From NCBI RefSeq assembly GCF_964355755.1, contig NC_092672.1, positions 38,818,437 to 38,882,436 of the forward strand: a stretch of DNA of 64,000 bases, given 5' to 3'. Both the position numbers and the translations under genes were made by a program. How positions within the stretch are numbered: position 1 is the stretch's first letter; each line of letters opens with the position of its first letter. Positions 13,574 through 41,260 of the stretch are shown here, piece by piece. The notes under the pieces were generated by a model. That model had not been told where the DNA came from. It saw only the letters and a program-made list of their open reading frames with translations, and did no database searches. Source of the stretch: Antedon mediterranea (lineage: Eukaryota; Animalia; Echinodermata).

Positions 13574-15280
13574 TTATTTTTCGCTGGTATGCCAAAATAT
13601 TGCAAGTGCAATTGCACTCCCTACTGCAGCATTGACATCATCTGTTGCCATCTCCACTGGTAAATCATAAACTCTTTTTAACTCTTCTTGTAAAATTTCA
13701 TTTTTAAGGAGGGCATTGCCACACCCCACAATCCTTGTAATACCAGCTGTACACAATATCTCCCTTGGTAACATATCAACCAGATTCTCCATCAATCCAG
13801 AACACAGTGCTCTAGACAAATCCCCAATATTCATATTAAATGGTGTGATGTTCCTAACATCGCCTTTCTTCTTCATTGCATGTCTTTCACCAAAAATTGT
13901 GGGATTAATTTTAAGGTCTGTTTTTGTAACATTTTTCCCCTTTTCCATCAATATTGTAATTACTTTTTCATCAGTGAAGTATTCTTGTGGCACTTGCATA
14001 GCCTCCATCATTTGTTGAAACATTTTAACTGTTGCTGCAAGTACATTTCCACCGTTGAGTGATGCAGCAACTGTTAGGTATGAACCGTTGAAAAAGGGGA
14101 AATATTCTAAAGCCTGAGGAAGACTACAACGAGTTGGTTTGAAATCAGAAGGGCATTTAAAGACAGCTTGCATTGATGTCCCAACATTTACAACTGAAAG
14201 AAAGAATCTGGAGAAATTTCTTTGTGTTGTGCAGGATTGTGGTATCAGGAAATTTGAGTTAATAAATAATTATCTTGTAATTTATTATAAATGTGGTAGT
14301 ACATTATTATTTGTTTTGCATTGTTTCTAGCATTAGAAATTTCACACAAGTTATTTAACTGTAGAACTTGATTTACCTGCATGTGTATCAGATATCAAGT
14401 GGGGTAATATTGAACATTGTAGATCACCCATGGCAACACCTACACCAGCTCCTTTTGGTATTCCTAGCCACGAGGCTTTTAGTTCACCAACTTTTCTGGC
14501 TGGTTGAATTACGTTTGGTAGCAAGTTTATTGGAAAACCAGTATTCTGTAGACTGTATAAAGTAATTGAATTATTAGATCAAAAATCAATTGACTGTTAA
14601 CTATTTGCAGAATAAAGACTAACAAAATAAACTTGCATTTACATTTGTTTATTCCATGAATTTGTGACTGTGTTGTAAAACCCCCAACTTGCTGCATTTT
14701 GCACTGACATAACAGGTTTTACTAGGCCACATAATATAGCAGTTAGCATATCCATAATCGTTCCAGCACAATCAAATCTTACATTTGTGTTACTTCCAAA
14801 GAAACTAGGAATATTCTTTTTGATCCATATCAAAGTTGCACATCCATGTCCAGTAGCAAGGTTGAGATGCGAATCAGGTTGCGGCAGAGTTGTAAGAAAG
14901 TCTTCTGAGCATCTCGCATCCTGCCATGTATACAAAGGACTGATGTTATCATCTTGATAACTTGATAGATCTAAACAATCATCTATTTGATGGGCGGTAA
15001 TTAGGTGGGAACTCCATAAAATGACGCCATGCATTTGTCCGGATACAGCAATGCGCCCTATGTGTTTACGGTGCTCGTCTTTCAGTCTTTGGATGCATGT
15101 TGTGCAGGCTTCAAGGATTTTCAAGTGGCATTGCTCACTACCCAATGGTGAAGTATCGCTAACAATATCGGCATTGGTATTTTCAGATTGCACATCAAGA
15201 ACTTGCTGATTTTCACTATCGATGACAGCAACTTTGACAGAGGTTGTACCCAAATCAATACCAAGTACTAAGAAGCTCAT
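13574..15280 (-). CDS. SHPK: Sedoheptulokinase (FGGY carbohydrate kinase family), 3 coding exons
   Basis: Exons 15280-14643, 14552-14377 and 14193-13574 join in frame. Motifs include LGIDLGTTSVK, VSGQMHGVILW, TWQDARCS, PQPDSHLNLATGHGCAT, MSVQNAASWG, MGDLQCS, NVGTSMQ and YLTVAASLNGGNVLA. Confidence 0.95.
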
Positions 15281-16008
15281 TTTTCATTTCTGTACTGTAT
15301 TCTATAAAATAAACACACGACACTAATAAATATTAATATAAAAACATTAATATAAAAACAATATTATAGTACTGTAGTATAAACAAAATACTGCATTGCA
15401 TGGATTCCCTTCTTGTCAATTAAAAAAAATAGACAAACTTCTCATTTCAATTAGATACCTAAAATGCCTAATTAAATAATTGATTGTTTGGCTTAAATAT
15501 ATTTCAAATTAAATCATTTTATTGTAAAAATGTACAAACAAATATACAGTATTAACAAAAATATGTTGAATGTTGTGTGCATTTATACATTCTCCATGTT
15601 TTCCTCCTATTCAGAAATTTCTGTTCAGGCCACCCACCCACCCACCACCATATTTCGGCAGTTCTCTTATTGAAAAAGATTGACATTTTATATATTTAGA
15701 ATAATTATTTTTACATAAATTAAAATAAAAAATTAGTTATAAAAATAATATTTTCATTCCTAGCAATTTTTTATTTTTATACATCTCTTAAAAATATATT
15801 ACTAGAAGATACAATGTATTTTGAAAAACTTTTTGTGAATACGTAGGCTGTTGGGCGGCGTAAAAATTGTTGACTACTGCTGCTGCTGCTGCTCGCTCGA
15901 CGACGACGACCTCTCGGCGGCGGGGTGGAGAGAGACAGATATCACCATATCATTCGGGTCGGCCTTGGACAAAATGTTGTTAGACTGATCTATCAAACAG
16001 TTAATAAA

Positions 16009-19000
16009 ATGGGTTGTTGTAAAAAGAAATGTTTGCCGTCAACAAACATTGTACCAGCCACACTTGCTTATATATTTCTAATTGGAACCACGTCATTATT
16101 TTTTGTATTTATGTAAGTACTATTATGTATTAAAATAATACTGGGTAGAGTTCTTGTTGAAAATGTACGTAGGCTAGGCCCAGACCTATGTAGGAGGCAA
16201 GACGAGCTAAACTAAACACTCTGAAATTATGTAGCGTCGGCCTAGCCTAGCTAGGTCTTTGTTTTTGCCATTGGGGAGACGGATTGCTTGTTGATAGACC
16301 CAGCTATGTTAGTTCTAACTTGTAGGCTGTATCTTCAAACCAACGCCTTTTTTATTTGGGATTAATTGTTAATGTTAGGCCTAATTCTTTCTACTGCCGA
16401 GTTAACTGTGAGTGTTGGCCTAGCTAGTAGTAGGTAGCTAGCTAGGCCTAGCCTAGTCCCCCTCTCTATATAGGCTAGGCCTAGGTTATGCTATATTTTG
16501 TATGCCAAAACAAAGTTGTAGTTTTACATGTATTGTTATTTAAAACATGGAGCTTTAAAAATTAGAATAGAAGGCCTCTCTAGCCTAGCTAGGCCTTTTT
16601 CATTGACATTGATTAATTAATCATCATCAGCTGTCAAATGAATAATTTGTAAATTGTAATTATATTAATATTATTTGTTAATAATATATTCCAAATTGAA
16701 TTTTGATTATGTTATTTATCATGATGTGGTCATTGTCAAATTATATACAGGTTATTAACAATAATATTAATAAATCTGGCAAAATTTTTATGCGAATTAC
16801 TTATTCCGGTATTACCTAATCAATATGTGGCGACTGATTCATTCACATTTGTGAAGGAAATCCAACATGTTGACACTTCGCACAAATGTATGGTGTCATT
16901 TGATGTTGTTAGTTTGTTCACGAACATCCCCCTGTTTGAATGCATTGACATTGCTGTTGACTATATCACTAATGATGTCAATTATAATATGAGCTTAAAC
17001 AAAAGCGATTTACGCAAATTGTTTTTACTTGCTACAGAAAAAACCAATTTCATATTCAATGGTGATATTTATGATCAAATAGACGGTGTGTAAATGGGAT
17101 CCCCACTTGCACCTGTTTTAGCCAATTTATTTATGGGTCATCATGAACAAACATGGTTAAAGAACTTCTCACAAGCTTCGGTCATGTTTTACTGTCGTTA
17201 TGTTGATGACATTTTTTGTTTATTCAATACAAAAGATGATGCAAATACTTTCTTTGACTATATTAACGATCAACACCCCAACATAAAGTTCACAATTGAA
17301 TATGAGATTGACCATTGTCTTCCATTTTTAGATATAATGTTAAACAATAATGGTTCTTCTGTCGTAACTTCGGTCTTCAGGAAGCCTACCTTCACGGGTC
17401 TCCTCACTAATTTTAACAGTTTCACTTCCTTTTCTTACAAAATTGGGCTTGTTCGTACTTTGATTGACAGAGTTTACAAATTGAATAATTCCTGGTCTAG
17501 CTTTAACAATGACATTTCAACTCTTAAAACCATTTTAAGTAAAAACTGTTTTCCACTCAGTATAATTAATGACAATATTTACAGATATCTTAGTAATATT
17601 TTTTCTCCTTGCAATGTTGCGTCAGTTGAGTCGATTATTGAACAAAACAAGGTTCTTTATTTTAAATTACCTTACTTACAGTTTGCCAAATGCGCACAAC
17701 AAAGAATCGACAAAATTACACGTAAATATTACAAAGGTATTAATATTAAATTAGCTTTCAAATCATTCAAAATTTCAAACTTGTTTAGTCTTAAAGACCC
17801 TGTCCCTGATGTGTTCCGCTCTTGTGTTGTATATAAATTTAAATGTATGGGATGTAATTCCACGTATATTGGTGAAACCAATAGACGGTTATCAATGCGG
17901 GTGCGTGAACATTTCAGGGACAAGGCTTCTCACATTTTTCAACATCTGTAGGATTCAAAACGGTGTAAGGCCCTCGCTAATGCGGGTTGCTTCACCGTTC
18001 TGGATTCTGCAGATTCCGCTTTCAAACTTAAGGTCAAGGAAGCCCTTCACATCTCGTGGAGTAAACCTTCCTTGAACAAACAAATCTATAACTTAGGCGT
18101 CACACTTGCCATATGATTGGTTGTTGCCTACATTCCTTGTTTTATTATGCTAATTACTTACCGTACCTATTTACATACAATATGTCCTATTGGTATATAT
18201 AAGCACTCTAGGCGTTGTTTACTGTTCTGATGATGAGAATAGTTTCTCGAAACATGTCACATTTACATTTTAAGGCAATTTGCCTTTTTATTAAATGCCT
18301 TGTTATAGTCATCCTAACTCGCAAGTTTGGTGGTATTATTCATGATTAATTTATAATTAATATGGTCAAATCACACCCTCCTCAATGCACCATAAACAGT
18401 AATAAAATTCAGACTTAATTTAGTGCATGGAATGCGTAATGTCTCTATGCACTTGACATTAAAAACTAAAAAGGCCAACTTCGTCGGATAAAATTAAAAT
18501 ATATTGTAAAGAAAAATTTAATGTATAAAATTAAAAGAATTGTAAAATCGTTGTTGCATGTTGCAAGTTTCCCCAGAGTATGGTAGTAGGTACTGTATAT
18601 GGCTTAGCAATGTACTGCTTAGCAATGTATTGCTTAGCAATGTATTGCTTAGCAATGTTTAAACTACAGGAATAAATAAAAATACATTTTCATGTACAGT
18701 GCTGCATTGTTTTTATTTGGGATCAACTACATTTGAAATGTAGACCTCTGAACCTGTAAAACATATCACCTTTTACTTTATGAATCATTGTTGTAAAAAC
18801 AAATGTTTAAAATTGAATTTGACAATCTGAATATTAAGCATAGTAATGTACTACTACCATAATACAATGGCTGCCTTTTGTAATGCTATTAATTACATAA
18901 ATAAAAATCAATTATACTTGTTATTACCACAGTGATTCCTAATCTTAGAGTATGCAATCTTCTAATACAAAATACATTATGCATTTTGTATTTGTTCTTT

Positions 19001-22000
19001 GGATAACCATGAAATTAGACATACTGTTTGTGCTACGTTGTCTCTACTTAGTTTATCCAAAGAAAAATACAAACATAATTTATTCAAACCAGATGAATTA
19101 TTTTAGAACAAAGTACATTCTTTTAAAAATGTTTATATGATTTAATGATAATATTTTTCCAAGATAGTCTTTTTTGGAAATAAGTAGCCATACTTAAGAA
19201 TTTTCAAGTACAGTAATATAAACTTCAAGTGTTTTGTTGCACGATTTTCATAATGTTTATTACCAGTATTGCTGTTTCTTTTTTTTCACAGCATACCAAC
19301 TCTTACAAAAGATTATACCATATTTATACCAATTTATGATGGTATCTTATTCTTATTTGTTCTTGGAAATTTTCTTCTGGCAACCTTTGTCGACCCTGGA
19401 GTTATTCCACAATGTGAGTATTTTATTTTTAAACAGAACAGATTCTGTCTGAAATATTACGGTCCTTGTTATTGAATGCAATAAAATGGTTGAACTTCAA
19501 TAAACAATTGATTGATAATGCTGAAATTTAGTCAATTTAACATTTGTTCAGTTAAGATAATAATTCGCTCTAGAGCTCTCAGAATCTCAATGTGCTGATA
19601 CAGTATGATAAAGTATGTGACATTGAACTTGCATAAAATTAACCAAGCACGTTATTAAAACTGATTTATTTTTAAATAAAATTGTCAATATTTATAGCAA
19701 AAGGGGATGAAGACAAAGAGGAAGAATCAAGAGCCCCTTTATACAAAGTAGTTGAGATTCAAGGGTACCAAGTACGCATGAAATGGTGTTCAACTTGTGG
19801 ATTCTACAGGCCACCTCGTTGCTCACATTGCTCAGTTTGTAATCACTGTATAGAAGTATGTATTGTTTCTTATTTTAAAACAGCATTTTATTTCTTTATG
19901 TCTTGAAGACCTTCCAGTCACGTAATGCAGTGGACAAAGGCCCCTAGTTTAGCGCTCCTAAGGGGCCCTCCAATACTGAGTAGTTGCATTGGGACTCCTT
20001 ATGTTCTGGGGTCCAATGCTGGGTTTAGCCAGTGAGAGCTCATAGCCGTTCTGCCACTGGGAATTCTAATCACATTGTCTGTGTGTTACAAACAAAGTCC
20101 CTTTGTTTTTCCTGTCTTGATATTCTAAAGCTGTGGTAGGTGAACATTCCTGTTAAAACCACATTTCTTTTTCTCTCTTTCATTTAAAGTGAAGTAAAAG
20201 TTTTAAATCATCTACAATCTTTACATTTAACTACTGTACTTACTAAAGTAGTACTACGGTACAAATCAATTAAAAAATGTACAGTTAATTAAATCAATGA
20301 ATGATATTGAGGATTGTTTTTGTGAAAGCTTTACTTGTGCTTTTAAAGGAAAGATCTCATTTCCTTGTATGTCATGTGACCTAGCCTTGTGAACTAATAA
20401 GCCATTCCTTCAACATGATTCATGTTGCACAAACCATGGATGTATAAAATTAAATTTTATACCTCCATGGTAACAAACTACTGTATTTCAGAGACAAGAC
20501 TCTCATTAAAACTGATTCTTTATTATTATTTTGCAGTCCATCCAATTACTTTAAATTATGATTTGTTTACTATTAATCAACCCTTTTTACTTTTGAAGTA
20601 TAAAATATACTTTTTATTTTGGCATTGAAGGAAACATTCAAAGTTTAATGCGGGTCCAAAAGTAAATGAAAGATATAAAGCACTCTCTGTGGAGTATATC
20701 TAATACAGGATTCTCATTGAATGTGTTAATGTTCCTGTCTCTAAATTTGACAAAATATGTCCATTTGCTTCTGTGATTTCTGTCCTTATTCTTGATGTAC
20801 AGTACACACATTGTAATCCTCAAAGTACAGTAATAAATTATACTTTACAGCACCTAAAAAGTGCAGCATAAGAATGTTTATCCAACATATTTATTAAATG
20901 TGAATACAGTAAATGAGGTTAAGAATCATCATGTTTCATTTTGCTCCTAACAGTGTTGGCTGAGATATTGATATGTTTTGATTTACATTTTCTTCCTTAA
21001 TTCCTTATTTTGAATCATCATGTTTCATTTTGCTCCTAACAGTGTTGGCTGAGATATTGATATGTTTTGATTTACATTTTCTTCCTTAATTCCTTATTTT
21101 GAATCATCATGTTTCATTTTGCTCCTAACAGTGTTGGCTGAGACATGTTTTGATTTACATTTTCTTCTTTAATTCCTTATCTTGAATTGTTGCATTAGTT
21201 GTTTCAATCCATTGATTGATTTTTGTTTATTACTTTTAAATTCTTTTTATTGATTGGTACGTGATTAATTCAGAATTTTTTGGGGATTTTATTTTTGTTA
21301 ACAAAATCTTGTAAGATGGACATTTTTTAATGAAATTATTGTTGTAAAGTGATTTAACAGAATAACATAATAAAACATTGTCACCAAAGATAAAGATTAT
21401 TTTATGAAACATCGCTGTAAAGCCAGAGGCGACAGTCATGATAATATGGTAATGAATATTACTATTGTGTCAAAGCAATATGTTAGAAAGGTCAATTGTT
21501 CTAGAATTACTAAGTGAAAAGTTAGATTTAAGTAATTAAGTAAGGAATGAGTCTAACTGGCCTACACTAGAGACCAACTTGAAAACCAGGTTCTTCAGAG
21601 AACATTTTAAAAATACTCACCTTCATAGATATTTATATTTTGTGTAGAATGATATCATCCAATAATTTAGCTAATCAATCAAATAGATTTATAATGCCGC
21701 CCTCTACTAATAATCTATTAATCAAATTAATAATTAACTTGAAGATGTATTGTCCTCCCAAAAGCATGAAAAATGAAGATTAATTAAATCAGACTTTGAA
21801 TAGGTTATTTTTTAATTTTAATAAAGTAAATCACTTCCGTAGAAAAAACACGGCAAAAAAATAATGTTTTCACTTATAAAATAACATGATAAATGGTTAA
21901 ATTCAACCAAAAATCCATTGGCTGGCAGCCAATTTGACCATTTTTTGCTTTAAATTCCATCCAAATGTTTTATGATCCAATTTTTGGTCAAAGTCAATAA

Positions 22001-25000
22001 CTATTATGTGACATTAAAATGGCATATTCAACAAAAAAAATTTTTGAAAATTATTTTCAGATGGACAATACATCTTTAAGACATTTATCACTAGACCTTG
22101 TGTCTTTTTAAGATCTTAAAATGGACCTGAAATGGACTTTCGATTTTCAAGAAATTCATACATGTTATTTAAATGTATCAAATTAACACAAACCCATACA
22201 AATAAAAACAAAATGTATAGTATTTTGAGTAAAAACGAAATTTTAAGATACCATGGTAAATTAGCGAAAATTACTCACGCCATTGCAATATTCTATTTCA
22301 ACGGCCGTCGGAAGCCTCTATATTCACGACGTCGCATATACACACGATGATATCGAGAGCGTGTATGCCGCCCGATAGTCAGTGAATGATCGACGGCCTG
22401 GAAAGATACCCGAAGTGTTGACACTAATACTAATTTATTCAATATCTAATGTTGTTGAAATATAGGTCCCTAAAATGTACTTCGTTTGTTCTAAAACCCG
22501 AATTTAGAAGGCCTACTGTACCTCCCAAACCTTTACTAGGCCTAACTAGGCTAGGCCCCCAATCCAGCGCGCTCCGTTTCATGTGCATCCAAGGACCAAA
22601 GCGATATCAACAACTTGCTGTGCTCATTGTCCAGCCAAAGTAAAATATGAATAAAATTCGTTTTCGAACTGCCTGATTCGTGACAAATAAATTATCATCT
22701 CATATTGCTAATTTAATTCTGCTAAACTAAAAACTAAAGAAACTAGCACATTTTAGCAGTATAAATTACGAACGATATACAAAATACACGAACAGAAAAT
22801 ATGGATACGCATCATTGCGCACGGAGCTGTATCCCGGACAACGTTGCCAGGCCAACTTCGGTATTGCCAGAAAAAAAACGTTGATTTTAAGATTTTAAAT
22901 CGTCATTTACTCGATAAATAACCGTTTATACGGTAATAATTTTATCTAAAAAAATTCTAAATACGTTTCTGCAAATGCACAAGCATTTTTTAGAAAATAC
23001 TCCATAGATTTCAAGAGTTATAGCCAAAAAACTGCAAATTGTCCATTGGAGGGATAGGAATATATTCGCAAAGTGACGTCACCCGCAAATTTTTTTGATT
23101 TTCAAATAGGGCTTTCCCCAAAAGGGCCAATTTATATTTTGTAACAATATACATTCTAGCAACACCTAATAGCCCCCAAAACATCATTCTAAAATGAAAA
23201 AAATCGAAAATCCATTTCAGGTCCATTTTAATGGTACAATAGTTTATCATAACTGATTCAAATTTAGTGGGCAAGATAAATTTGTGTCTTTTTGACTAGT
23301 CTAAGTTGGTTTTAACTTTTAGTGGCGATGCAGGAAATTTATAGAATTTTTTTTTAATTAACCATCTACTAGTATTTATCTTTCAGTAAATTTTTTATTT
23401 TTTATTTCAGAAATTTGATCATCACTGTCCATGGGTGAATAACTGTATTGGACGTCGGAATTACAAGTATTTTGTACAGTTTCTTCTGTCATTGACTATT
23501 CATATGGTGTCTGTGTTTACATTCACATTGATCTATATCCTGACTCATAAAGAAGATCTGAAAACAACAAAGTGTATTGTTGGGTATCCTTTTTGTTACT
23601 AATACGCTACTTTTACACAATCTAGCCTATACAAAATCTATAGGCCTAATTCTTTACCTGTTTTATGATGTGTTTCTTTTTAAATTCACCATGATTACTG
23701 ATTTTTGTAATGTCTTCACATCAAGACAGACATGTTAGGCAATACAATATGTTGTTGATAAAATTATAAGAGTATTTTACACAGGTTTTTCAATTTCTTA
23801 GAACTATATCTTTTGAATACGGACTAAATAAAATTTTGGAAATTTGAATCAATTCTACACTGTCCCTCATTTCTACACTGTCCCTCATTTCTACACTGTC
23901 CCTCAATTCTACACTGTTGTCCCTCATTTCTACACTGTTGTCCCTCAATTCTACACTGTTGTCCCTCAATTCTACACTGTTGTCCCTCAATTCTACACTG
24001 TTGTCCCTCATTTCTACACTGTTGTCCCTCAATTCTACACTGTTGTCCCTCATTTCTGTGAATAGTTTCTGTGGTACTTTAGTCATACAGACTCTGTCAT
24101 GATCCTCTTCGATTTTTTTTAAAGAGTATTTTTGTTTTGTGTTAAAAAACCTTTCAAAAATGTTGATGAAACTTAGCGACATTTCTGACTCTCAGTTAAC
24201 ATTCTCATGTTTCATTTGTTTACTAATCAAGTTTTCCAATGTTTTATAGAAACGTATAACTGACTTGTGTTATTCTTTGTGTTTTACACTCTACTATCCT
24301 TCAATACTTGTTACTTGTTATTGTTTTATTGATTGTGTTTGCTTCTTAACCAGCACAGTTTTTGCGTAGTAGGCATAGTAGCTTTGACATCGTTTCCTGT
24401 GTTTGGCCTTGCAGGCTTCCATATGTCCTTAGCAACCAGAGGCCGGACGACCTATGAGCAGGTACTTGTGCTGTCGTCCAAAAGTGTGTTGCATGTTAAT
24501 ATATTTGTGCTATGTGCATTTGTCTTGTTTTTACATTGTCTGTGTAATAATGCTACTTTTGAAAGATGTTTGTTGAAATATGTTGGAAATGTACTGTATG
24601 TGGTATGTTTTTTACATCTCACTGTTAATACTTTGTGGGGCGCAGTCATGCATTTTGTAAATAAATTTAAATGTTTATGCAAAAATGATTAGTATTTATG
24701 TTTAATACAGGACTCCCCACTGACTGCGCCCCAAGCAACGTCATTGTTGTGATTGGTTGTTATAATTTCACTGTGATTTTCATATAAATTTTACAAGCTA
24801 CTGTAAGAGTGCATTGTATATATTTTCATGATCTAGAATCAGTTTTTATCGACAGCACAAGTTTGGCTAAATGCAAATTTTGTACAAATGTGTAAATTTG
24901 CATTATAAGTACTGTATCGTTAATCTTGATGTCAGAGCTTAAGAAAGATGTTTGTGGTACATTGAATTTACAATCAATCAATTTGTAGAACAAAGAAGTT

Positions 25001-28000
25001 AAGCTATGTATTTATCATCATTGACACTAATTCTCAGTATCTGCATTACAAACTATGTTAAAAACATTTAAAGTTAAAGAGTGTAAAGTTACAGACTTAC
25101 ATTTGTTTATAGTTGTCTTTTTCACATATTTCTTAATCACAATGGATATTGATGATCAGCTATAAAATGTCTTCTAACCCTACATTGCGTTTTATTCAGT
25201 GATTAGTACATTATCATTCCAGCTTATCCTTCAAATTTGACATCTGATAAATATTTGTTGTGTTCTATGATCTATATCTTTAAGTAATGTGATACATGTA
25301 TATTTTATATCCATTTTTAAATATTCACTTATTTTGGTGATTATGTTTTGTATGACTGCATGTGCTATCATTTCCTTGACAACACTAATTAGTCTTGTTA
25401 TTTTGGTGATTGTGTTTCTTACATTCATACCGGTCATTATTTTAAGTATATTCCATTCCACCCTGGTCACCAGGGGGCGCACCACAAATGAACAGGTATG
25501 TATACAGCACTGTTTTGTACATTTTATGTCTGCACTATTGAGCACAGGGGGCGCAGGAGTGGTATGAACATTGATAAAAAAGTCATTCAACGGGGGCTCT
25601 AGCCCCCTCGTCGGGGAGCCTAGCCCCCCGTCGGGGAACACGGGTACTTTTTGTCGGGGAATAATAATATACAGTAAAAATCGTTCACTTCGTAGCTTCA
25701 GCGCCTAGAAAACCGCGACGTTCCATTGACCGTGAGTACATCAGAGGGCTATTATGCACTATGCATTCATTATTGCCAGCGATCTAGCTAAACAGTAGCT
25801 AGGTACACACTTGTCTGGCGGTATCCCTTTGTACGAATCGTTCAACGTTGGGTCCAGACGCGTGATGTCATGTTCCATCCAGGGACCAAAATGTGTATTG
25901 TAGTTACTTTCCAGGCGAAGTTTACCGACGGTTACGTCGTGTACTGTGTGTCGACGTACGCTACACTACAGGAAAAACGAATTATGTTAATTGTTTGTAT
26001 GTTCACAAATTTTTTGATTTACAAGTAACCCTCTACCATGGGGCACTTAAAATATATATTTCATACATTACTAAACAAAAAAACATGCTATTATTTTCAC
26101 TTAGCCAACATCTTATTAATTATAGCTAAGTTATTAAATTTTCAATGTCCTGTATGAACTTCTCACCACTCGGAAGTTCAGATGGACGTACGTACGCACG
26201 CATACACTTGGGAAGTAGGCTATAAACTGATTTCCCCGACTACTAAAAGGTTCTACGCTTGCGGACGCACCCCACCTCCCCCTCTAAAATAAAGGCAAAA
26301 TGGACCACTTTATTTAAGCCTCTAGGCCCGATGTTTCCATAGTATAAGATGCAATTTTTGAAGACCTGCAGCTCTGGTTTTAAAAATGTTCTTAGCTCAG
26401 CCCCAACCATAAAGCTGGTCATATTTCGAAGAATAATAAGTGCATTTTCCGGGACCTAACAGCTCTATTTTTCAAAAATGTCTTAGCTCAGTCACAACCA
26501 TGATAGGGACTATATTTTGTTTCTTGTTTTGAAGTATAATAAGTCCAATTTCCGGGACCTCCAACTCTATTTTTCTAAATTTTCTTAGCTCCATCCCAAC
26601 CACGGTTGTCTGTTTCTGTAGACTTGTAATTTCGTTTCATAGTATCATTAATATGTATATAAATTAATTGCAACTTCCGGGGACCTAGCAGCTCTATTTT
26701 TCAAAATTTTCTTACGCCTATGCGATAAACAATATAGGCACACCTCTTCGCCTGTTGGTAGCCTACGCTTTACGTTTGCGTATATTAATTTTTCTAAGCT
26801 ACAATTTACCCGATAAATATAGCCATATTTTGAATTTTTTTTTTAAATTGAAAAATATGGATTGAAACAGTCATCATCGCGCATCGTGTTTTTGCACGCA
26901 GTATTTTATTTATGCATTATAAAAAATGGAAAAAGTGGCTACCCTAAATCTTATTAAAATGGCCTCAAATGACGCTAGAACACCGGGGGCCCTTGGCGGC
27001 CCCCAGCCTAGTGATGCTCGCTTCGCTCGCATAGCCCCCTCGTCGGGGAATGTAGCCCCCGCTTCTGGAAAATCCTGGCGCCACCGCTGTTCTACACGTC
27101 TTGTAATTTTGGTAATACACATCAAATACACCTACTTTTAGGTTATTAATCATCTATTTTAGTATTCTCATATTTTGAAATGTTACTATTAAGTACTTTC
27201 TATCTTAACATCTGTAGTGTAGATACATCATTTATACATGTTATCCAAGTTTTAAAGATTTTGTCTTTATTTTGTCAGTGTTTAATAATGATAATTTGTA
27301 CAGCATGATTCTTAATGTAACAAACCGAATGTTTGTAAACAATACTGCTGTAATGTGTATGATTGATTCCATCATTGTTGGATTGGAAATATATTGATAT
27401 TATAAAATCCAAAAGTCTGTCATATGAATGGACACTTAATATGCTTGATTTGTGCTTAATGTAAATAACATTTTCACATCCTGTTTCAATAATCATGGTC
27501 TAAATATTATCTATAAAATATTCACAAAGTTTGTATATGAGTGACTCAAAGCCAACTTGCTCTGTTTATGTACAGAATGCTTCCATCAATAAACCTTTGC
27601 GTCTTTAATGGTGAGATTAATCTTGTTCATCTGTTTAAAATTGTTTTCAATAGGATGAATTAAACCATTTTTTTTTAGGTAACAGGCAAGTTCAGAAGTG
27701 GTCATAATCCTTTTGATATGGGATGTTGGAGTAACTGTGGTGATGTATTCTGCATACCATGGCGACCAAGGTAAATGTCTTATTCTCATTTTAATAAATC
27801 TTAAGGGTTATGCAGTCAAATGATACAACAATATCTAAATGAATATGTCTTTATCCTGATATCAATCTATCTATCTATCTAATATCTAAATGAATATGTC
27901 TTTATCCTGATATCAATCTATCTATCTAATATCTAAATGAATATGTCTTTAATATCCTGATATCAATCTATCTATTTATCTATCTAATATCTAAATGAAT

Positions 28001-29691
28001 ATGTCTTTATCCTGATATCAATCTATCTATCTATCTAATATCTAAATGAATATGTCTTTATCCTGATATCTATCTATCTATCTAATATCTAAATGAATAT
28101 GTCTTTATCTTGATATCAATCTCATTGTTCATGAATATATTGTTATATTTCTGTCTTCATAATATTTGTTGTTTGTCTTCATAATATTTGTTGTAATTTT
28201 TTTTTCTTCACTATATTCTTTACATTCTATAATTCAATTTTGTCATAGTCTTGAATTTTTAATATTTGTATTATCATTCTTGATTCTTATTGTCATAATC
28301 ATAATCTTTATTGTCATAATCTTTATTGTCATAATCTTAATCTTTGTTGTCATAATCTTTGTTGTCATAATCTTTATTGTCATAATCTTTATTGTCATAA
28401 TCATAATCTTTATTGTCATAATCATAATCTTTATTGTCATAATCATAATCTTTATTGTCATACAATAATCTTTATTGTCATAATCATAATCTTTATTGTC
28501 ATAATCATAATCTTTATTGACATAATTTAAGTTGTAAATGTTATCTTTTTCAGTATTGTTGCAAGCAGAATCATACTAATTTAAGGCAATTTAATTGCAC
28601 CACTTTTTTTAGTTTTGGATTACAATGGTTATGATTGTCTTTCAGATATTTAGGTTACAAAGGATGTACATTGACATTGGCAGCACTCTATGCTCCTCAA
28701 CCACTTAAAAACCTGTCTGAAAGTGAGATTCGTCTTAACGTCAGTGGAAATGGTGCTCCACCAGTCTTCAACAGATCAAATAATTACCCAAACTATGTAA
28801 ATCTCTTGTAATTACTATGTATATTGTATATTACATTGAGCCCAGTACTGTTATTAGGTGTGAATAACTGGACATGCATCTAATGGTCAACCAGTGACCA
28901 CTCTGAGTTAGGGTAGTCATTTTGTAAACATTTATTCTTGTTTTAAACCATTAAAGTATTATCTCAAACTGATTCAAAATCATAAATAAATTATAAATAC
29001 ATTATAATGCTGAGAGAATATCGTGTTTTGATCATGATGTCTGCTTTTGTTTTCACAGAGTGTCAATTCCCCTAGTAACCATGCTGTAATGTATGGCAAA
29101 CCTAATTATCAAGACGAAGGTCAGAGTTTAGACACTGAGGAAGAAGAGCCACCACCATATGCTAGAACACCACTACGTCAAGACTTTCAGCATTTACGAG
29201 AAATGGCACGAGTTGCACCACCTCAGGCTTCTAACAGACACGAACAAAGCAACGGTGATAAAACACCTCCAATGTATGATTACAACCCGGTTGAGAACCT
29301 ACAGAGTCCATCGTCCCGTCGACAACCAAGAATCGAACAACCTATTCAAAATAATGTTCACATAGACAATAGAGGGCAAGTTTTACCACCAGATGAATTA
29401 AGATCTAATCCAAATTCTGGGAAGCCAATCGGCAGGCACCAAAATATACAACTCGAACAATCACGAGTTCGTCGCCCGATTTCATTTGTGACGGCGCTTG
29501 AAATGAGCAGAGAGGCTGAAGATATGCAGAAGTCGCAGTCTTCGCCTACTAAAAAGTCAACATCAATGAAACCAAAGGCCAATGGACGAAACCAACATTT
29601 TCGTGGTAACAAGGACTCAACACCAGGCCATGCATATTGTATGCAAGACTCATCACACATGGGCTCACAGAGTTTTGAAGTTTCTGTATAA
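16009..29691 (+). CDS. ZDHHC8: DHHC palmitoyltransferase, ZDHHC5/ZDHHC8 co-orthologue
   Basis: Exons 16009-16112, 19292-19413, 19698-19855, 23411-23583, [24359-24461 or 25393-25495], 27679-27770, 28646-28796 and 29059-29691. Motifs include [52 protein letters not shown], RGRTTxEQVTGKFR and NPF, with a C-terminal PDZ ligand FEVSV. The symbol could equally be ZDHHC5. Confidence 0.93.
16770..18300 (+). mobile_element. Penelope-like retroelement (RT + GIY-YIG), 5'-truncated, with in-frame stops
   Basis: RT motifs [43 protein letters not shown] and LPFLDI, plus the endonuclease [22 protein letters not shown]...EH. Stops fall at 17091 and 17949. It lies in ZDHHC intron 1. Confidence 0.93.
18221..18262 (+). 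ncRNA. Minimal hammerhead-ribozyme motif in the Penelope 3' region
   Basis: CTGATGA-t-GAGAA-tagt-TTCTC-GAAAC-ATGTC gives both core boxes, a 5-bp stem II, a palindromic stem III (ACATGT) and a GUC site. Stem I is weak. Confidence 0.65.
20435..20469. mobile_element. 35-bp palindrome, P-like mini-element or excision footprint
   Basis: CATGGATGTATAAAATT-A-AATTTTATACCTCCATG (arms match 16/17). The flanks gcacaaac and gtaacaaac resemble a decayed TSD. Confidence 0.5.
20923..21185. repeat. ~89-bp tandem repeat x3
   Basis: gaatcatcatgtttcattttgctcctaacagtgttggctgaga... occurs three times. Confidence 0.9.
21743..22075. mobile_element. Kolobok-like MITE
   Basis: TIR AGATGTATTGTCC / GGACAATACATCT, flanked by ttga and ttaa. 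Confidence 0.65.
22120..23227. mobile_element. Kolobok-like non-autonomous transposon
   Basis: TIR AATGGACCTGAAATGGA..TTCGATTTT and its inverse, a TTAA TSD on both sides, and RR...YY termini. Confidence 0.8.
23584..23592 (+). other. U12-type (minor spliceosome) 5' splice site
   Basis: GTATCCTTT directly follows the DHHC exon (phase 2) and is an exact U12 consensus. Confidence 0.92.
23848..24056. repeat. 18/21-bp minisatellite
   Basis: Units of ttctacactgttgtccctca(a/t). Confidence 0.95.
24359..24461 (+). CDS. ZDHHC8: ZDHHC alternative exon 5a (TM4 + TTYE)
   Basis: U12 branch site TTCTTAAC at 24343-24350, acceptor AG at 24357-58, 103 nt. Encodes (G)[34 protein letters not shown]. Donor CAG|gtactt. 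Confidence 0.88.
25393..25495 (+). CDS. ZDHHC8: ZDHHC alternative exon 5b (TM4 + TTNE)
   Basis: U12 branch site TTTCCTTGAC at 25371-25380, acceptor AG at 25391-92, 103 nt. Encodes (G)[34 protein letters not shown]. Donor CAG|gtatgt. Confidence 0.88.
25544..27088. mobile_element. Non-autonomous hAT-like element
   Basis: Degenerate TIR cagggggcgcagga / tcctggcgccaccgctg. The subterminal motif tagccccc(t)cgtcgggga occurs at both ends, with internal ~120-bp repeats at 26360-26720. Confidence 0.6.
27831..28122. repeat. ~50-bp tandem repeat with (TATC)n
   Basis: aatatctaaatgaatatgtctttatcctgatatcaatctatctatct, about 6 copies. Confidence 0.92.
28287..28526. repeat. 15/21-bp minisatellite
   Basis: Units of tttattgtcataatc(ataatc). 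Confidence 0.92.
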
Positions 29692-35545: not shown

Positions 35546-38500
35546 ATGGTGTACAGTTCTTTTTATCTTCCTGGAATAAGATTTATTAATCTTACTAGGT
35601 CATACATCATCCTTGCTGGTCTTACATCTGTTGTTTTCTGGATCACAGGTTTGTACAATAATTAGTTTTCATTTTTAATTGATAACATTTGATTTGAATT
35701 TACATTCTACTGTATTGTAGACCTATACTCTAAATCATAAAAGTTTAAATTATCTATATATTGCAAAATTGCTTTTTAAAGTTCGTACCTGAAGATTTTT
35801 TTTTATGGAGGCAAATGTCATTGATGTAACAAAATGCTTACAAATTGTTTTTAGGATTGTTTTATAAAAATTTAAAAATGTAAATTGTTTATAATTTATA
35901 TAAATTTAGGTGGACATGATGCTTATCTGGAGCAAACAGTAATCAAGTGGAGTATAACAACATCAGCCTTTGAGCTTGCCTGTATCGCATTTATCAAAGT
36001 TTTCATTCTCTTCTTTCTGTACACTAAGATAGAAGACTACACACTACGGATACTAGATGATCCTTACAACTTATATTTAGAGAGTCGCAAACGTCTCTAC
36101 CTTATCTTTATCTTTATTACGTCTTTCATCTGCTTTGGGTATGCGTGTGTCAAAGGTGGTTTGGTTCTAAACCTGCTTCTTAATGATGCATCCTACCAAC
36201 CTATGCATGTGATGTATAATGCACTGGTTATTGCATCAATAGTGTTTGGTTTAATAGATGTCTTGCTATGTTTATCATGCCCATATTTTCTTCGTAAATT
36301 GTTAATACTTCGCGTACAAAAACGCTTTAATGATGATCATCAAGAAATAGACGACAATGGAAAGGTGATGAAGAAGGAATCAAGTGTGTCTTTAGCACGT
36401 GTGATGGGTCTAGCTAAAAAAGTAAGTTCTTCTAAAAAAAATGTAGATTTTTAGAAATTCTTTAAAAAATAATTTTTGGAATTTTTAGATTTAAAAAATG
36501 TTGTTGGAAATTCAATTGAAATTTTTCTGGAAGATCATTCGTCATATATTTTCTGTAAACCTTGCAGATACAATGAGTAAGGGAATAAGTAAGGGAATGA
36601 GTAATGAGTAAGGGATTGAGTAAGGGATTGAGTAATGAGTAAGGGAATAAGTAAGGGATTGAGTAATGAGTAAGGGAATAAGTAAGGGATTGAGTAATGA
36701 GTAAGGGAATAAGCAAAAATGCATTCAATTTAGTTCATTCTGTGCAATAAGTAAATATGTTGGATGAAAATGAATTATTTTGAATAACGTTCATAACTAT
36801 ACTGGTACTTGAATAACAAACAAAGGTTTAATTGTACATTAAAATGAATCATAATAATAGCTTAAATTATTTTGTTTAGGAAGCTGGTATTCTGTTTATT
36901 GGAACGGTATCTCTGATCTTCTCAAGTGCGTCAACCATGGCATCCCCTCTATTCTTTGGCAAGGTCATAGATGCAGCAACTGACCCTAATACCAAGGACA
37001 TGAGTAAGCCAACATTATCACTCATCAGCAATCCACTATTACCATATTATATATATATATATAATATAATATTACCCATCCCCAATTTTCATTATTACTT
37101 TCCATTGCTATTTTACTGTATTAACAGTTATTGATATAAATAAGAACTCCACAAAATATAAATATTTGCTACATGGCTGAAGATTGTTTTTTTCTCTTGT
37201 CAGGTGAAGTGAATAAAGCTGTTTTGATATTGTTTGCCATTAATGCTGGTGGCGCTGTTGCCTCCTTCTTCCGTTCCTGGCTTTTTACACTTGCCGGTAC
37301 ACGTGTTGTGTGCCGTGTTCGTAGCAAACTACTTGCTGCCATTATCCAGCAAGATATTGCATTCTTTGATATGAACCGCACTGGTGAACTAACTAGTCGA
37401 TTATCTTCTGACACACAAGTTGTTCAAAATGCTATAACAGTATGTTTTATTTTTTTATTCTGCAGTCACTTTCAGTACTAGTGCACTAATTTTCAAAGTG
37501 GTACAGTAATTGGAAATATCATGACCAACATAATAAAGTAAAGACAAAAGAGTAATCAAAATTATAAATAGAGAAAATATACATTAAAAATAGAATATTA
37601 TTTAATTGATTATTCCTTATGATTGAATATTGGGCAATTTTATCTTATGATGTATAGCAAACTTAACTTTTTTTAAACAATTTTTTCCACGACAGGTGAA
37701 TATATCAATGCTGATGCGCTATTCATTCCAGATCCTAGGCTCACTGATTATAATGTTGGTACAAAGCCCATCACTCACTGGTGTTCTCTTGTCTGTTATA
37801 CCTATTGTGGCAGTTGGAGCTATGCAGTATGGTATGCTTTTATTAAATTTTACTGGAGTTGGTTTTCTTTAATTTTTTAGTTTAGTAGAAAAAAGGTAGA
37901 CATTTTCTGACAAAACCTAAAAATAGAAAAAACATAAAAATAATTATTCTTCTTTATTGTATCAAACAAAACAAAAATTTTTTCAATACAAAAGGTTGCC
38001 AAGATATAGCCAAAGCTAATAAAGCTTGGTACCTTTTATCTTAACTAACTTAAGCTACGAAATTATCAAATAAATGACAGAACTTAAAAGAAAATAAAAA
38101 TTTTATAACGTCAAAAACAAAACAAAACATTTTGAATAATAAATAAATAACATAACATAACATAAAGTGCTGTATGTACTATACTGTAATAAACAAAACC
38201 ATATCAGTTCAATAGATAATATCTGATGAATTAACAATATATAAAACATTGTAAATTATAGATTATTCTTTTATATACTTAAATAAAAGTAATTCTTTAA
38301 GTTGTTTAGAGAAAGCAAATCTAGATGTAATTGTTCGTAATTGTACTCTGCACAAATATATTTTTTTGGTACTCCAGTTAATTGTATTTGCAGTGGGTAA
38401 ATTTTTAAATAAAATTAAATTTGTGAGAGACAACTCTTTGATGTTAGTTTCCAGTTGTTGTTACCTTTAAAAATGATATTTTTGTATTTTAAGGTAAATT

Positions 38501-41260
38501 TGTGAAAGGAATCAGTAAAAAGTTCCAAGATGCCCTTGGGGATGCAAGTACCGTTGCAGAGGAGTCCATCTCAAGTATTAGAACTGTACGTAGCTTTACA
38601 AGTGAACCAAAAGCTATGAAAATGTACAACAAAGAAATTGACCACAGCTATGGATTTGGAAAGAAAATTGCTCTAGCAGCCGGAATATTCAATGGTATCA
38701 TTGGCATTGTTGCTCAGGTGAATGAATCTCTTGTGTATTCTTCCAAATAGAAACAATAATAAGTAAATGTTGTTTTTTCCAATGTGTCCAGCTGTAGGAA
38801 GTTAATCTGTACTATTTGTTGTTGATTTATTAGTAGGCCAAACTTCTGGGTGTACATTGCTGCTGTTGTCAATTGATATGGAATATGGTGGAAGAACATC
38901 AATAACAATGTCCTTTCCTTGTTTGTAGGGAGCTATTACATTAGTGTTATGGTATGGAGGCAAGCTTGTATATAACAATGTCCTTTCCTTGTTTGTAGGG
39001 AGCTATTACATTAGTGTTATGGTATGGAGGCAAGCTTGTATATAACAATGTCCTTTCCTTGTTTGTAGGGAGCTATTACATTAGTGTTATGGTATGGAGG
39101 CAAGCTTGTATATAACAATGTCCTTTCCTTGTTTGTAGGGAGCTATTACATTAGTGTTATGGTATGGAGGCAAGCTTGTATATAACAATGTCCTTTCCTT
39201 GTTTGTAGGGAGCTATTACATTAGTGTTATGGTATGGAGGCAAGCTTGTATATAACAATGTCCTTTCCTTGTTTGTAGGGAGCTATTACATTAGTGTTAT
39301 GGTATGGAGGCAAGCTTGTATATAACAATGTCCTTTCCTTGTTTGTAGGGAGCTATTACATTAGTGTTATGGTATGGAGGCAAGCTTGTATATAATGGTG
39401 ATATTACTGTTGGTGTTTTAACAGGTACAGTAAAACAATCATCAAAATAAGTTTATTCTAAATGGTTTAGAATTATATTACAAATGTGTAGTAGCCATCT
39501 AAACATGATTCATTAGAATTATTTATCATTTCCCTACATTTTCAACATCTAATGATCAATATGAAATTCAACCTAAAGAATTTAGCAACTGTATGAATGA
39601 GCAACATTAAATAATATTTATTATATTCATTTTTAATAGCATTTATGTTGTATACATTAAATGTTGCTATGGCATTTGCCTTCTTGAGTTCTCTGTATGG
39701 TGACTTTATGAAAGCAGTTGGCGCTTCTGTGCGTGTTTTTGAACTCATGGATCGTGTCCCAGACATAAGTAACAGTGGAGGAAATAAGCTGATAGAATTT
39801 GATGGAAGCATCAGATTCGAAAATATCAGTTTCACATACCCATCAAGACCTGATAACCCGGTACTTAAGGTAAATCAATTGAATTTTATATACGCATCAA
39901 GGCCTGACAACCTGGTATTTCAAGTAAATAAATTGATAGATATTACATACAAGGTTAGACAAGCAATTTCATGAGTTCTTTTATATAATTTTTTTTCAAA
40001 GGATCGGTTTGACAGAAAAATTACAATGCATCGAATAAAGGTCACAATAGTTAGCATAAAAACTGTTGTGATCTTTCTCAATGCATAATTTGTTTTCACT
40101 TTTAACAGGGTGTGACATTTAGTGTAAATCCTGGCCAGATGGTAGCATTAGTGGGCCCTTCAGGGGGAGGGAAGTCTACTATTGTAAACCTTATTGAGAG
40201 GTTTTATGAGCCTGAATCAGGAAGAATTCAATTTGGTAAGTTATTAATGCATAAAATACTTTGTAAATATGTTTTGAGAACTTAATCAGATACAGAAATG
40301 CTTATTTATAATTATTAACAATGGTTTTTTGTTGGTAGGGGGTACTGATTTAAAAACACTTGATCCTCAATGGTTTCGTAAGGAGATAGGTATGGTGAGC
40401 CAGGAACCAGTACTATTTGCTTGCTCTATAAAAGAGAATATCGCATATGGCAAAGATGCTGATGATGAAGAGGTAAGCAATATTTTCTATACTACAGTAG
40501 CAACAATATATTATACCAAAAATGTTAGGAAGATAATGAAAGTTATATCTATCTATCTATGTATCTACAGATTGTAGAGGCTGCCAAGCAAGCCAATGCT
40601 CACGATTTTATTGAATCCTTTGAAGATGGTTATGACACGAAAGTAGGAGAAAGAGGTGTACGATTATCTGGGGGTCAGAAACAGCGAGTGGCTATAGCCC
40701 GTGCACTTATTATGAATCCATCGGTACTCCTTCTTGATGAGGTTTGTTTTCTTATTCATTCATCACTGTCATCAATATATTTATATACGCTTTATAAATC
40801 AATCTATTACAATGTATAATTGTTATTTGTTGTTTTTTTGGTTGATATAGGCTACAAGTGCACTGGATGCAGAAAGTGAGTTTCTTGTGCAAGAGGCTAT
40901 AGATCGAGCCATGCAAAATAGGACAGTGTTGGTTATAGCACATAGACTATCAACAGTACGCAATGCATCTCAGGTTAGTACAGAAGAACATTTTTTTTTC
41001 TCCTTTTTTACCATTATAATATTGTGTGTGATAATGATTTCAATGATTAGTTCAGTGATTTAGATTATATAAACTTTATGTCTGTACAATATTTTTTAAA
41101 GGTCGTAGTTATAAAGGAGGGAACTGTGGCAGAAATTGGAACTCATAATGAACTACTTGAGAAAGGGGGGGTCTACAAGGACCTTGTACTGAGACAATTG
41201 AGCTCCGGAACAGAACCAAAACCTGAGAAGGACCATTCCATTAATGCAGATTTGGACTAA
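35546..41260 (+). CDS. ABCB-subfamily half transporter (TAP/ABCB9/ABCB10-like) with a hydrophobic N-terminal extension, 13 coding exons
   Basis: Exons 35546-35648 (start tentative), 35910-36421, 36880-37003, 37204-37439, 37696-37831, 38494-38717, 39349-39424, 39640-39869, 40109-40235, 40339-40472, 40571-40741, 40851-40973 and 41102-41260. TMD motifs [24 protein letters not shown] and [14 protein letters not shown]; Walker [10 protein letters not shown]-loop VSQEPVLF, signature LSGGQKQR, Walker B LLLDEATSALD and H-loop IAHRLSTV. Confidence 0.93.
36572..36712. repeat. Low-complexity minisatellite
   Basis: Units of gagtaatgagtaagggaataagtaagggatt. Confidence 0.85.
37946..38295 (-). mobile_element. 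Second copy of the LINE-3'-end-like dispersed repeat
   Basis: Near-identical to 2301-2644. It lies in an ABCB intron. Confidence 0.75.
38903..39395 (+). repeat. 70-bp tandem repeat x7 containing the acceptor and first 15 codons of an ABCB exon
   Basis: aacaatgtcctttccttgtttgtag|GGAGCTATTACATTAGTGTTATGGTATGGAGGCAAGCTTGTATAT. Acceptor AGs end at 38928, 38998, 39068, 39138, 39208, 39278 and 39348. Confidence 0.95.

Follow-up and report, generated by a model that had tools for sequence, protein, structure and literature searches.

A diverged exon pair behind a U12-type intron in crinoid ZDHHC5/8: a likely case of exclusive splicing through spliceosome incompatibility

Regulated alternative splicing at minor introns has been described as almost absent, with few examples (PMC3584512). 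Among the closest described systems is the exon 6a/6b pair of the vertebrate JNK genes (MAPK8/9/10), where two homologous exons are separated by a mixed-class intron and one of them serves as the default (Chang et al. 2007, PMC1874599; Turunen et al. 2013, PMC3584512). In the JNK layout two U2 acceptors are combined with two U12 donors, a U12 acceptor lies downstream, and the hybrid intron holds a U12 donor. The ZDHHC5/8 locus described here shares the two homologous exons, the mixed-class intron and an apparent default exon, but in mirror image: a single U12 donor lies upstream of two U12 acceptors, and the hybrid intron combines a U2 donor with a U12 acceptor. This mirror relation had been suggested in a preliminary description of the locus, and it is borne out by comparison with Chang et al. 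(2007). The two systems belong to different genes and phyla, and the JNK pair has been tested in minigenes, whereas the ZDHHC5/8 pair is known from sequence.

Exons 11 and 11a of mouse Tmem87b are likewise exclusive, equal in length and adjacent to a minor intron, and reads joining them are unreported (Olthof et al. 2019, PMC6717393). Their arrangement is MAPK9-like and their 72 nt keep the reading frame, whereas the 103-nt exons of ZDHHC5/8 shift it, making NMD a confounder here, unlike in Tmem87b. U2/U12 incompatibility has also been described for five MXE clusters in human, which fall in the same class, and the screen that produced them took in donors of introns preceding a cluster, as in the present case (Hatje et al. 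2017, PMC5740500); the mirror layout may thus already lie within earlier work. ZDHHC5/8 does not occur in 10 supplements of that study, a set that excludes the appendix naming the five cases. The intron itself is familiar from single-exon ZDHHC5 and ZDHHC8, in which the same phase 2 GT-AG U12 intron precedes a 103-nt exon (Lin et al. 2010, PMC2831892; PMC6717393), and in the MIG table both genes have, in human and in mouse, a GT-AG minor intron with this donor (PMC6717393). Among the proteins and loci examined, vertebrates, fly-side relatives, molluscs, cnidarians and a hemichordate have one exon only. A literature search by titles and abstract starts, outside subscription papers, found no paper on the exon pair, which likely adds a mirror-layout case of the JNK-type mechanism.

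On similarity, the locus, which lies within a 64-kb stretch of Antedon mediterranea contig NC_092672.1 (the window), is the crinoid ZDHHC5/8 orthologue, encoding a predicted palmitoyltransferase (DHHC). The initial gene assignment is upheld by the presence of PF01529 in the Anneissia orthologues, by 88% identity of exon 4 to those proteins, and by a PDB comparison favouring ZDHHC5 (E 2e-102) over ZDHHC9 (6e-48). Isoforms built with either candidate exon, 5a or 5b, are open throughout (511 aa), and each is identical to the matching Anneissia isoform at 428/512 positions. The AlphaFold model is poor overall (mean pLDDT 41), and only its helix 181-212 was used. Features are collected in Table 1.

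Table 1. Features of the ZDHHC5/8 locus, in positions of the 64-kb window.
Feature	Position	Strand	Basis
Coding exon 1	16009..16112	+	tblastn with Anneissia protein; open CDS
Coding exon 2	19292..19413	+	tblastn with Anneissia protein; open CDS
Coding exon 3; U2 donor, phase 0	19698..19855	+	tblastn with Anneissia protein; 3' end is the loose end preceding 23411 in run X1
Exon 4 (173 nt); carries DHHC active site and TM3; phase 2 at 3' end	23411..23583	+	tblastn; X1 contig
U12-type donor GTATCCTTT	23584..23592	+	sole match on either strand; used in X1 contig; same site in orthologues
5a U12-type branch box TTCTTAAC	24343..24350	+	U12-pairing score; branch A at -10
Exon 5a; TM4 and TTYE motif; keeps Gly202	24359..24461	+	protein match to Anneissia isoform X1; unseen as spliced form in run X1
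Hybrid intron; U2 donor GTACTT, U12-type acceptor	24462..25392	+	class from sequence only
5' arm of 13-bp perfect stem; spans +3 to +15 of 5a donor	24464..24476	+	computed pairing
Nested 13-bp perfect stem, 24636-24648 with 24721-24733	24636..24733	+	computed pairing
3' arm of stem over 5a donor	24850..24862	+	computed pairing
5b U12-type branch box TCCTTGAC	25373..25380	+	U12-pairing score; branch A at -14
Exon 5b; TM4 and TTNE motif; Ile in place of Gly202	25393..25495	+	4>5b>6 in one X1 contig; protein match to Anneissia isoform X2
Exon 6; U2 acceptor without U12 box	27679..27770	+	X1 contig; acceptor scoring
Exon 7	28646..28796	+	tblastn; open CDS
Last coding exon	29059..29691	+	tblastn; open CDS; X1 contig piece begins at 29059

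The donor of intron 4, GG/GTATCCTTT, is the only [GA]TATCCTT in the window on either strand, and it fits the rule for U12 GT-AG donors, RTATCCTT without AG at -2/-1 (PMC10853781). The same source treats GG/GTATCCTT donors as mostly genuine U12 sites and dual-type 3' sites as rare. Exons 5a and 5b (103 nt each, phase 2 to 0, stop-free) both follow a box resembling the consensus TCCTTRAY, to which the 5b box conforms and from which the 5a box departs by one wobble. Ranked by our own U12-pairing score, the boxes reach 15 (5a) and 16 (5b), against at most 7 for the gene's six other acceptors; only 5 of the 3375 + strand AGs in the window attain at least 15, and 3 of these lie under the 5a/5b boxes. 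The exons end in CAG/GTACTT (5a) and CAG/GTATGT (5b). The intron between them consequently has ends that, judged by their bases, belong to different classes. Some GT-AG U12 acceptors do take U2 donors, as in CENATAC, DRAM2, PFDN5 and KANSL2 (PMC10853781).

Most of the preliminary reading of these signals was reproduced: the perfect U12 donor at the same bases, the two exons base for base, U12 branch boxes close to both AGs, U2-type donors on both exons and an ordinary U2 acceptor on exon 6. Its statement that the 5a and 5b acceptors lack a pyrimidine tract stands only in part. The pyrimidine share at -14..-4 is low (0.55 at 5a, 0.45 at 5b), but not uniquely so, given that the six U2 acceptors span 0.55-0.91 and that of exon 3 equals 5a; a short pyrimidine run is also present at the 5b acceptor. 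The donor, both boxes and the orthologous U12 intron elsewhere together support the assignment of intron 4 as a U12-type GT-AG intron.

Both copies have been retained well beyond Antedon. Annotated isoforms of Anneissia (XP_033112163.1/XP_033112164.1) and Apostichopus (XP_071848361.1/XP_071848360.1) differ only in this exon, and gene models of Holothuria (KAJ8044103.1) and S. purpuratus (XP_791699.3) carry both copies in a-b order, linked via 7 and 18 filler residues and with the correct N-terminus missing. The isoform pairs sustain the view that the exons are a real and conserved mutually exclusive pair. At the protein level the 5a type is thereby present in Apostichopus, Holothuria and S. 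purpuratus. Antedon 5a and 5b are each identical at 31/34 residues to their counterparts in Anneissia (isoforms X1 and X2, respectively), while sharing with one another 18/34 residues and only 10/34 third codon positions. Tyr218 of Antedon 5a is common to the sea cucumber and sea urchin copies; in its place, Asn occurs in 57 of 57 non-echinoderm peptides. Among the matches listed, 4 starfish, 1 brittle star, 2 Lytechinus and 2 Diadema species have 5b-type proteins only.

An exon tree resting on 34 columns supports the 5b clade (97/95) and rejects a separate crinoid duplication (p-AU 0.023), from which we infer that the pair dates to the echinoderm ancestor; the 5a clade falls short once the sea urchin is added (84/87). 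The divergence of the crinoid, sea cucumber and sea urchin lineages goes back some 480 million years or more. The single-exon state is visible in a metagenome scan of 80 loci, which contained no echinoderm-like a/b pair and yielded 4 usable intron-bearing orthologues, all with the order U12 intron, exon, U2 intron. With this layout shared, duplication alone would create the hybrid intron. Sea urchin and oyster-like proteins contain read-through peptides starting Tyr-Pro-Phe at this site, pointing to the same donor.

Transcript evidence comes from contigs in all runs. One contig of run X1, presumed to be RNA from its spliced contigs rather than from the run record, splices 4>5b>6 exactly, so that two of the junctions listed earlier for checking, 23583>25393 and 25495>27679, are seen together. 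The former is a GT..AG joint, has only 29-30 letters on its exon-4 side, and is missing from the DNA-like runs X2 and X5. In X1, the single RNA-like run, exon 5a is covered only by an unspliced contig (depth 6, similar to other intronic contigs). Spliced 5a does not occur among the X1 contigs, which is no evidence of absence because contigs drop rare forms; joined 5a-5b (24461>25393) does not occur there either, and contigs cannot show absence. Each exon may thus occur alone in a transcript, 5b by one contig in Antedon and 5a only by annotation, in the Anneissia and Apostichopus isoforms.

As the preliminary description had proposed, both aberrant products would be frameshifted, double inclusion running into a stop at 25489-25491 and the joining of exon 4 to exon 6 into one at 27680-27682. 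Two of its conclusions were nonetheless overstated. Inclusion of exactly one exon is not obligatory, as exon 3 could join exon 6 via U2 sites, dropping exons 4 and 5 in frame (173+103 = 276 nt), and one Asterias-like protein (P0275) has this form. Nor need the choice fall to the minor spliceosome: the U2 donor of 5a, once joined to exon 6, removes 5b anyway, so the major spliceosome can also decide.

We favour, with a probability of about 65%, a reading in which 5a and 5b are diverged copies of a TM4-TTxE exon, duplicated in the echinoderm ancestor behind an old U12 intron 4, and in which U2/U12 incompatibility likely bars their joint inclusion. The duplication would have left each copy with its own U12 branch site and U2 donor. 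The intron between them would then start at a U2 donor, end at a U12 acceptor and so be poorly spliceable. Joining of exon 4 to exon 6 would be barred for the mirror reason (U12 donor, U2 acceptor), and frameshift with NMD would back up both bars. Incompatibility, the likely lock on double inclusion, would exclude that product without picking an exon; the choice would probably be set by exon definition across 5a or 5b. Exon 5b looks like the default, because it has the stronger donor and branch box and no masking stem, and 5a appears regulated, possibly via release of the stem over its donor.

The mature mRNAs expected from incompatibility are also those expected from frameshift with NMD, and it is conceivable, if rather unlikely, that exclusivity arises mainly from RNA structure or splicing factors together with NMD, with the U12 signals as inherited passengers and the 5b acceptor open to the major spliceosome once 5a is defined. 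The early stops in both aberrant products accord with such an arrangement, dual-type acceptors exist (PMC10853781), and competing RNA structure has been termed the major MXE mechanism (PMC6071210). The 13-bp perfect stem may mask the 5a donor and so bias exon choice; its length is reached at 8 of 1702 GT[AG] sites, the gene's seven other donors reaching 5-6, but among 15 control windows one reached a fold as good as that of the stem window. Positions 24711-24733 can pair with 24636-24648 (-28.6 kcal/mol) or with approximately 25545-25562 (-30.5 kcal/mol); the latter, the sole competing partner found, sits at the edge of a repeat element, and a docker-selector model was therefore set aside. Furthermore, near-consensus U12 boxes are kept at both acceptors although the exons have diverged so far at third codon positions. 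Around the exons, YCAY, TGCATG and ACTAAY occurred either at control-like counts or as single hits, and an ORF continuing past the 5a donor was taken as chance.

It is improbable that intron 4 is dual-use or partly U2-converted in this lineage, which would make the pair an ordinary U2 MXE cluster. The G at -1 is disfavoured for U12 donors (PMC10853781) and in D. ananassae and Anopheles the same intron has become U2-type (PMC2831892), but the perfect donor without AG at -2/-1, the two matching branch boxes, and the Tyr-Pro-Phe peptides marking the same donor in sea urchin and oyster-like proteins all argue otherwise. That 5a is a silent relic in Antedon, with only 5b used, is similarly improbable: its spliced form is unseen in the X1 contigs, its donor is weak and possibly masked, and no 5a-type protein is present for starfish or brittle star among the matches listed, but contigs lose rare forms and 5a is open, retains its branch box, its close match to Anneissia isoform X1 and the Tyr218 shared with sea cucumbers and sea urchin.

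If incompatibility is indeed the lock, a single U12 donor is contested at this locus by two U12 branch sites, in a pair that crinoids, sea cucumbers and a sea urchin have all retained. The visible ancestral single-exon state would show a one-step route to such a switch, and sea urchin embryos permit knockdown of minor snRNAs and UPF1, which would separate incompatibility from NMD. A broader generalisation, tentative and on balance doubtful, is that ancient minor introns act as cradles for exon switches by making a duplicated exon instantly exclusive. The TM4-TTxE exon behind the same minor intron would then have undergone two independent duplications, one in echinoderm ZDHHC5/8 and one in mollusc ZDHHC14-like genes, and in echinoderms the minor spliceosome, gated by the 5a-donor stem, would switch acyl-chain or substrate selectivity between tissues. 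The isoforms diverge in TM4 and in the TTxE motif next to the active site, which may give them different preferences for acyl chains or substrates. With the rest of the enzyme unchanged, the two naturally occurring versions of TM4 would provide a ready test of the role of TM4 and TTxE in DHHC selectivity.

All the elements named in the preliminary description were found in the window at the positions given for them (table). The motif [GA]TATCCTT has a single match there, on either strand, which is the donor following exon 4. Acceptors were scored by base pairing with a U12 branch template; its consensus, TCCTTRAY, agrees with that reported in PMC10853781. The 5a and 5b acceptors score 15 and 16, with the branch A at -10 and -14, and none of the gene's other six acceptors exceeds 7. 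A score of at least 15 is reached by 5 of 3375 AGs of the + strand, three of these belonging to the 5a and 5b branch boxes, and by 3 of 3098 of the - strand. The accompanying claim that both acceptors lack a pyrimidine tract is weaker, with values of 0.55 (5a) and 0.45 (5b) against 0.55-0.91 at the other acceptors. Upstream, the start codons of ZDHHC5/8 and an FGGY-family kinase gene lie ~730 bases apart, and a shared promoter is possible.

Features of the ZDHHC5/8 locus and its surroundings (window positions)
Feature	Position	Strand	Remark
FGGY-family kinase gene	13574-15283	-	head to head with ZDHHC5/8
ZDHHC5/8	16009	+	
Retroelement reverse-transcriptase fragment	16725-17951		ZDHHC5/8 intron 1
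Exon 3, end	19855		
Exon 4, end	23583		DHHC active site
U12 donor	23584		
Exon 5a	24359-24461		103 nt
5a-5b intron	24462-25392		
5a donor stem	from 24464; 24850-24862		donor +3 to +15
Nested stem	within 24464-24862		
Exon 5b	25393-25495		103 nt
Repeat/transposon remnants	~25545-27088		intron after 5b
Exon 6, start	27679		
ABC half-transporter gene	35876-40819		
ZW10 gene	48408-60459		
Long tandem repeat	~49400-52300		inside ZW10

The gene is a ZDHHC5/8 orthologue. Its exon 4 shares 88% identity with the ZDHHC5-like protein of the crinoid Anneissia japonica, whose isoforms match the full window isoforms at 428 of 512 residues. The best solved-structure match is ZDHHC5, with identical numbering across residues 187-220. 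That both exons are real, as first proposed, is borne out by isoform pairs in Anneissia and Apostichopus and by the splicing of 5b in X1, a sequencing run guessed to be RNA and available as assembled contigs. In Anneissia the pair, with 512 aa in each isoform, differs at 16 positions, every one of them inside 187-218, and 5a and 5b each share 31 of 34 residues with the respective isoform. A comparable pair, of 582 aa each, exists in Apostichopus japonicus. Both copies, in a-b order, also occur in gene models from Holothuria leucospilota and S. purpuratus, where 7 and 18 filler residues link them and the true N-terminus is missing; we read these models as probable mis-predictions that reflect genomic order rather than co-inclusion. 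Several public gene models (P0229, P0231, P0089 and P0230) are broken at the U12 intron or fuse both copies, so annotation probably under-reports the pair. For four starfish, for Amphiura and for two species each of Lytechinus and Diadema, the proteins listed are all of the 5b type; judged from these sequences, 5a would be either minor or lost in those animals.

In Antedon, one 161-letter X1 contig joins 23583 to 25393 over GT..AG and continues into exon 6, with just 29-30 letters on the exon-4 side. This joint is absent from the DNA-like runs X2 and X5, and spliced 5a appears in none of the six X1 contigs aligned to the region. Runs X1 and X4 also carry a synonymous, third-position C>T variant at 25453 in 5b.

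The 5a and 5b isoforms each read open for 511 aa, and both the double-inclusion product and the join of exon 4 to exon 6 meet early stops. Each spliceosome is reported to excise its own intron class only (PMC1874599), and dual-type acceptors are described as existing but rare (PMC10853781). The intron between 5a and 5b would be a poorly spliceable hybrid of U2 donor and U12 acceptor, and the 4-to-6 join would be blocked in mirror fashion by its U12 donor and U2 acceptor. The sites, the frames, the conservation and the splicing of 5b are observed; the hybrid and the block are inferred, and we consider U2/U12 incompatibility the likely lock, with a probability of roughly two in three. Because NMD predicts identical mature mRNAs, steady-state RNA cannot reveal the lock. 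Skipping from exon 3 to exon 6 uses U2 sites only and stays in frame, removing exons 4 and 5 and hence the DHHC site; the Asterias-like protein P0275 has the form expected from it, and loss of U11 in mouse is reported to increase skipping of both exons flanking minor introns (bioRxiv 2020.05.18.101246).

Incompatibility alone does not decide which exon is chosen. Splicing of the 5a donor to exon 6 would delete 5b. Use of the 5b donor would leave both U12 acceptors open, and picking 5a would then strand the hybrid intron; coordination by exon definition is needed. One candidate regulator is a perfect 13-bp stem over the 5a donor, within which a second perfect 13-bp stem is nested. Predicted pairing probability at the donor stem is 0.88-1.0. 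Folding of the region gives z -4.0, equalled by 0 of 100 shuffles, for a segment picked after the stem was seen, and 1 of 15 control segments reached z -4.2. In a fairer test, complements of at least 13 bases within 1 kb occur at 8 of 1702 GT[AG] sites, of which this structure accounts for two; the longest at the gene's seven other donors are 5-6. The predicted stem is suggestive and consistent with 5b as the default. The intron after 5b is filled by high-copy repeat or transposon remnants, whose left edge could pair with 24711-24733.

The mirror relation to JNK suggested previously holds: the switch would work alike, but the layout is reversed. Tmem87b is a further JNK-like case, and a U12 intron is confirmed in MAPK14 by PMC8883539, which gives no description of that gene's exon pair. 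The newness of the layout may be tempered by the Hatje 2017 screen, which covered it and found five human clusters (PMC5740500). Among titles and abstract starts, subscription papers aside, no paper on a ZDHHC5/8 exon pair was found, and the echinoderm pair is apparently unreported. The paralogues ZDHHC9, 14 and 18 of human and mouse have an AT-AC minor intron; protein alignment and donor flank, rather than DNA, suggest for ZDHHC9 a position at the equivalent start of the TM4 exon, with 34 residues from there to the end of TTNED.

For ZDHHC5 and ZDHHC8 of both human and mouse, the PMC6717393 supplement lists the donor that follows exon 4 here, and in the fly this intron is likewise reported as U12 type (PMC2831892). 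Of the 80 loci from a metagenome scan, four were orthologues that carry introns and in which exon 5 could be located; each combines a GTATCCT donor in phase 2 and a branch box (scores 12-16) with a single exon of 103 nt followed by a U2 donor. Duplication of that exon with its flanks yields the present layout without further change. Among 142 new representatives, 128 proteins bear the exon and none of them has a tandem copy, and in the hemichordate Ptychodera two listed isoforms show one ancestral-type exon. In a tree of 25 exon peptides, weak because it has 34 columns, the 12 rows of 5b type, which span the five echinoderm classes, group as one clade (97/95), and the four 5a rows cluster at 84/87 (95/91 in a first tree without sea urchin). 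A constraint uniting crinoid a and b was rejected (p-AU 0.023). Columns 202, 205, 211 and 218 separate the types: all 5a copies have Tyr218, which is Asn in 57 of 57 distinct non-echinoderm peptides, and 5b has lost Gly202, present in 56 of the 57. The exon pair is real and ancient in echinoderms, behind a conserved minor intron.

Exon 5 supplies the greater part of the fourth transmembrane helix (181-212 in a model that is poor overall) together with the TTxE motif, which is reported to touch the DHHC site (PMC8107437). Ser217 of DHHC20, described as a component of the acyl-cavity ceiling (PMC9105814), aligns near 193-194, with a numbering offset that we derived and that may be off by one residue. 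At position 194, 5a carries Gly or Ala; the 5b of crinoids, holothurians and ophiuroids has Phe, and others have Ala, Thr or Val. It is a reasonable guess, and no more, that switching between 5a and 5b may alter chain-length or substrate preference.
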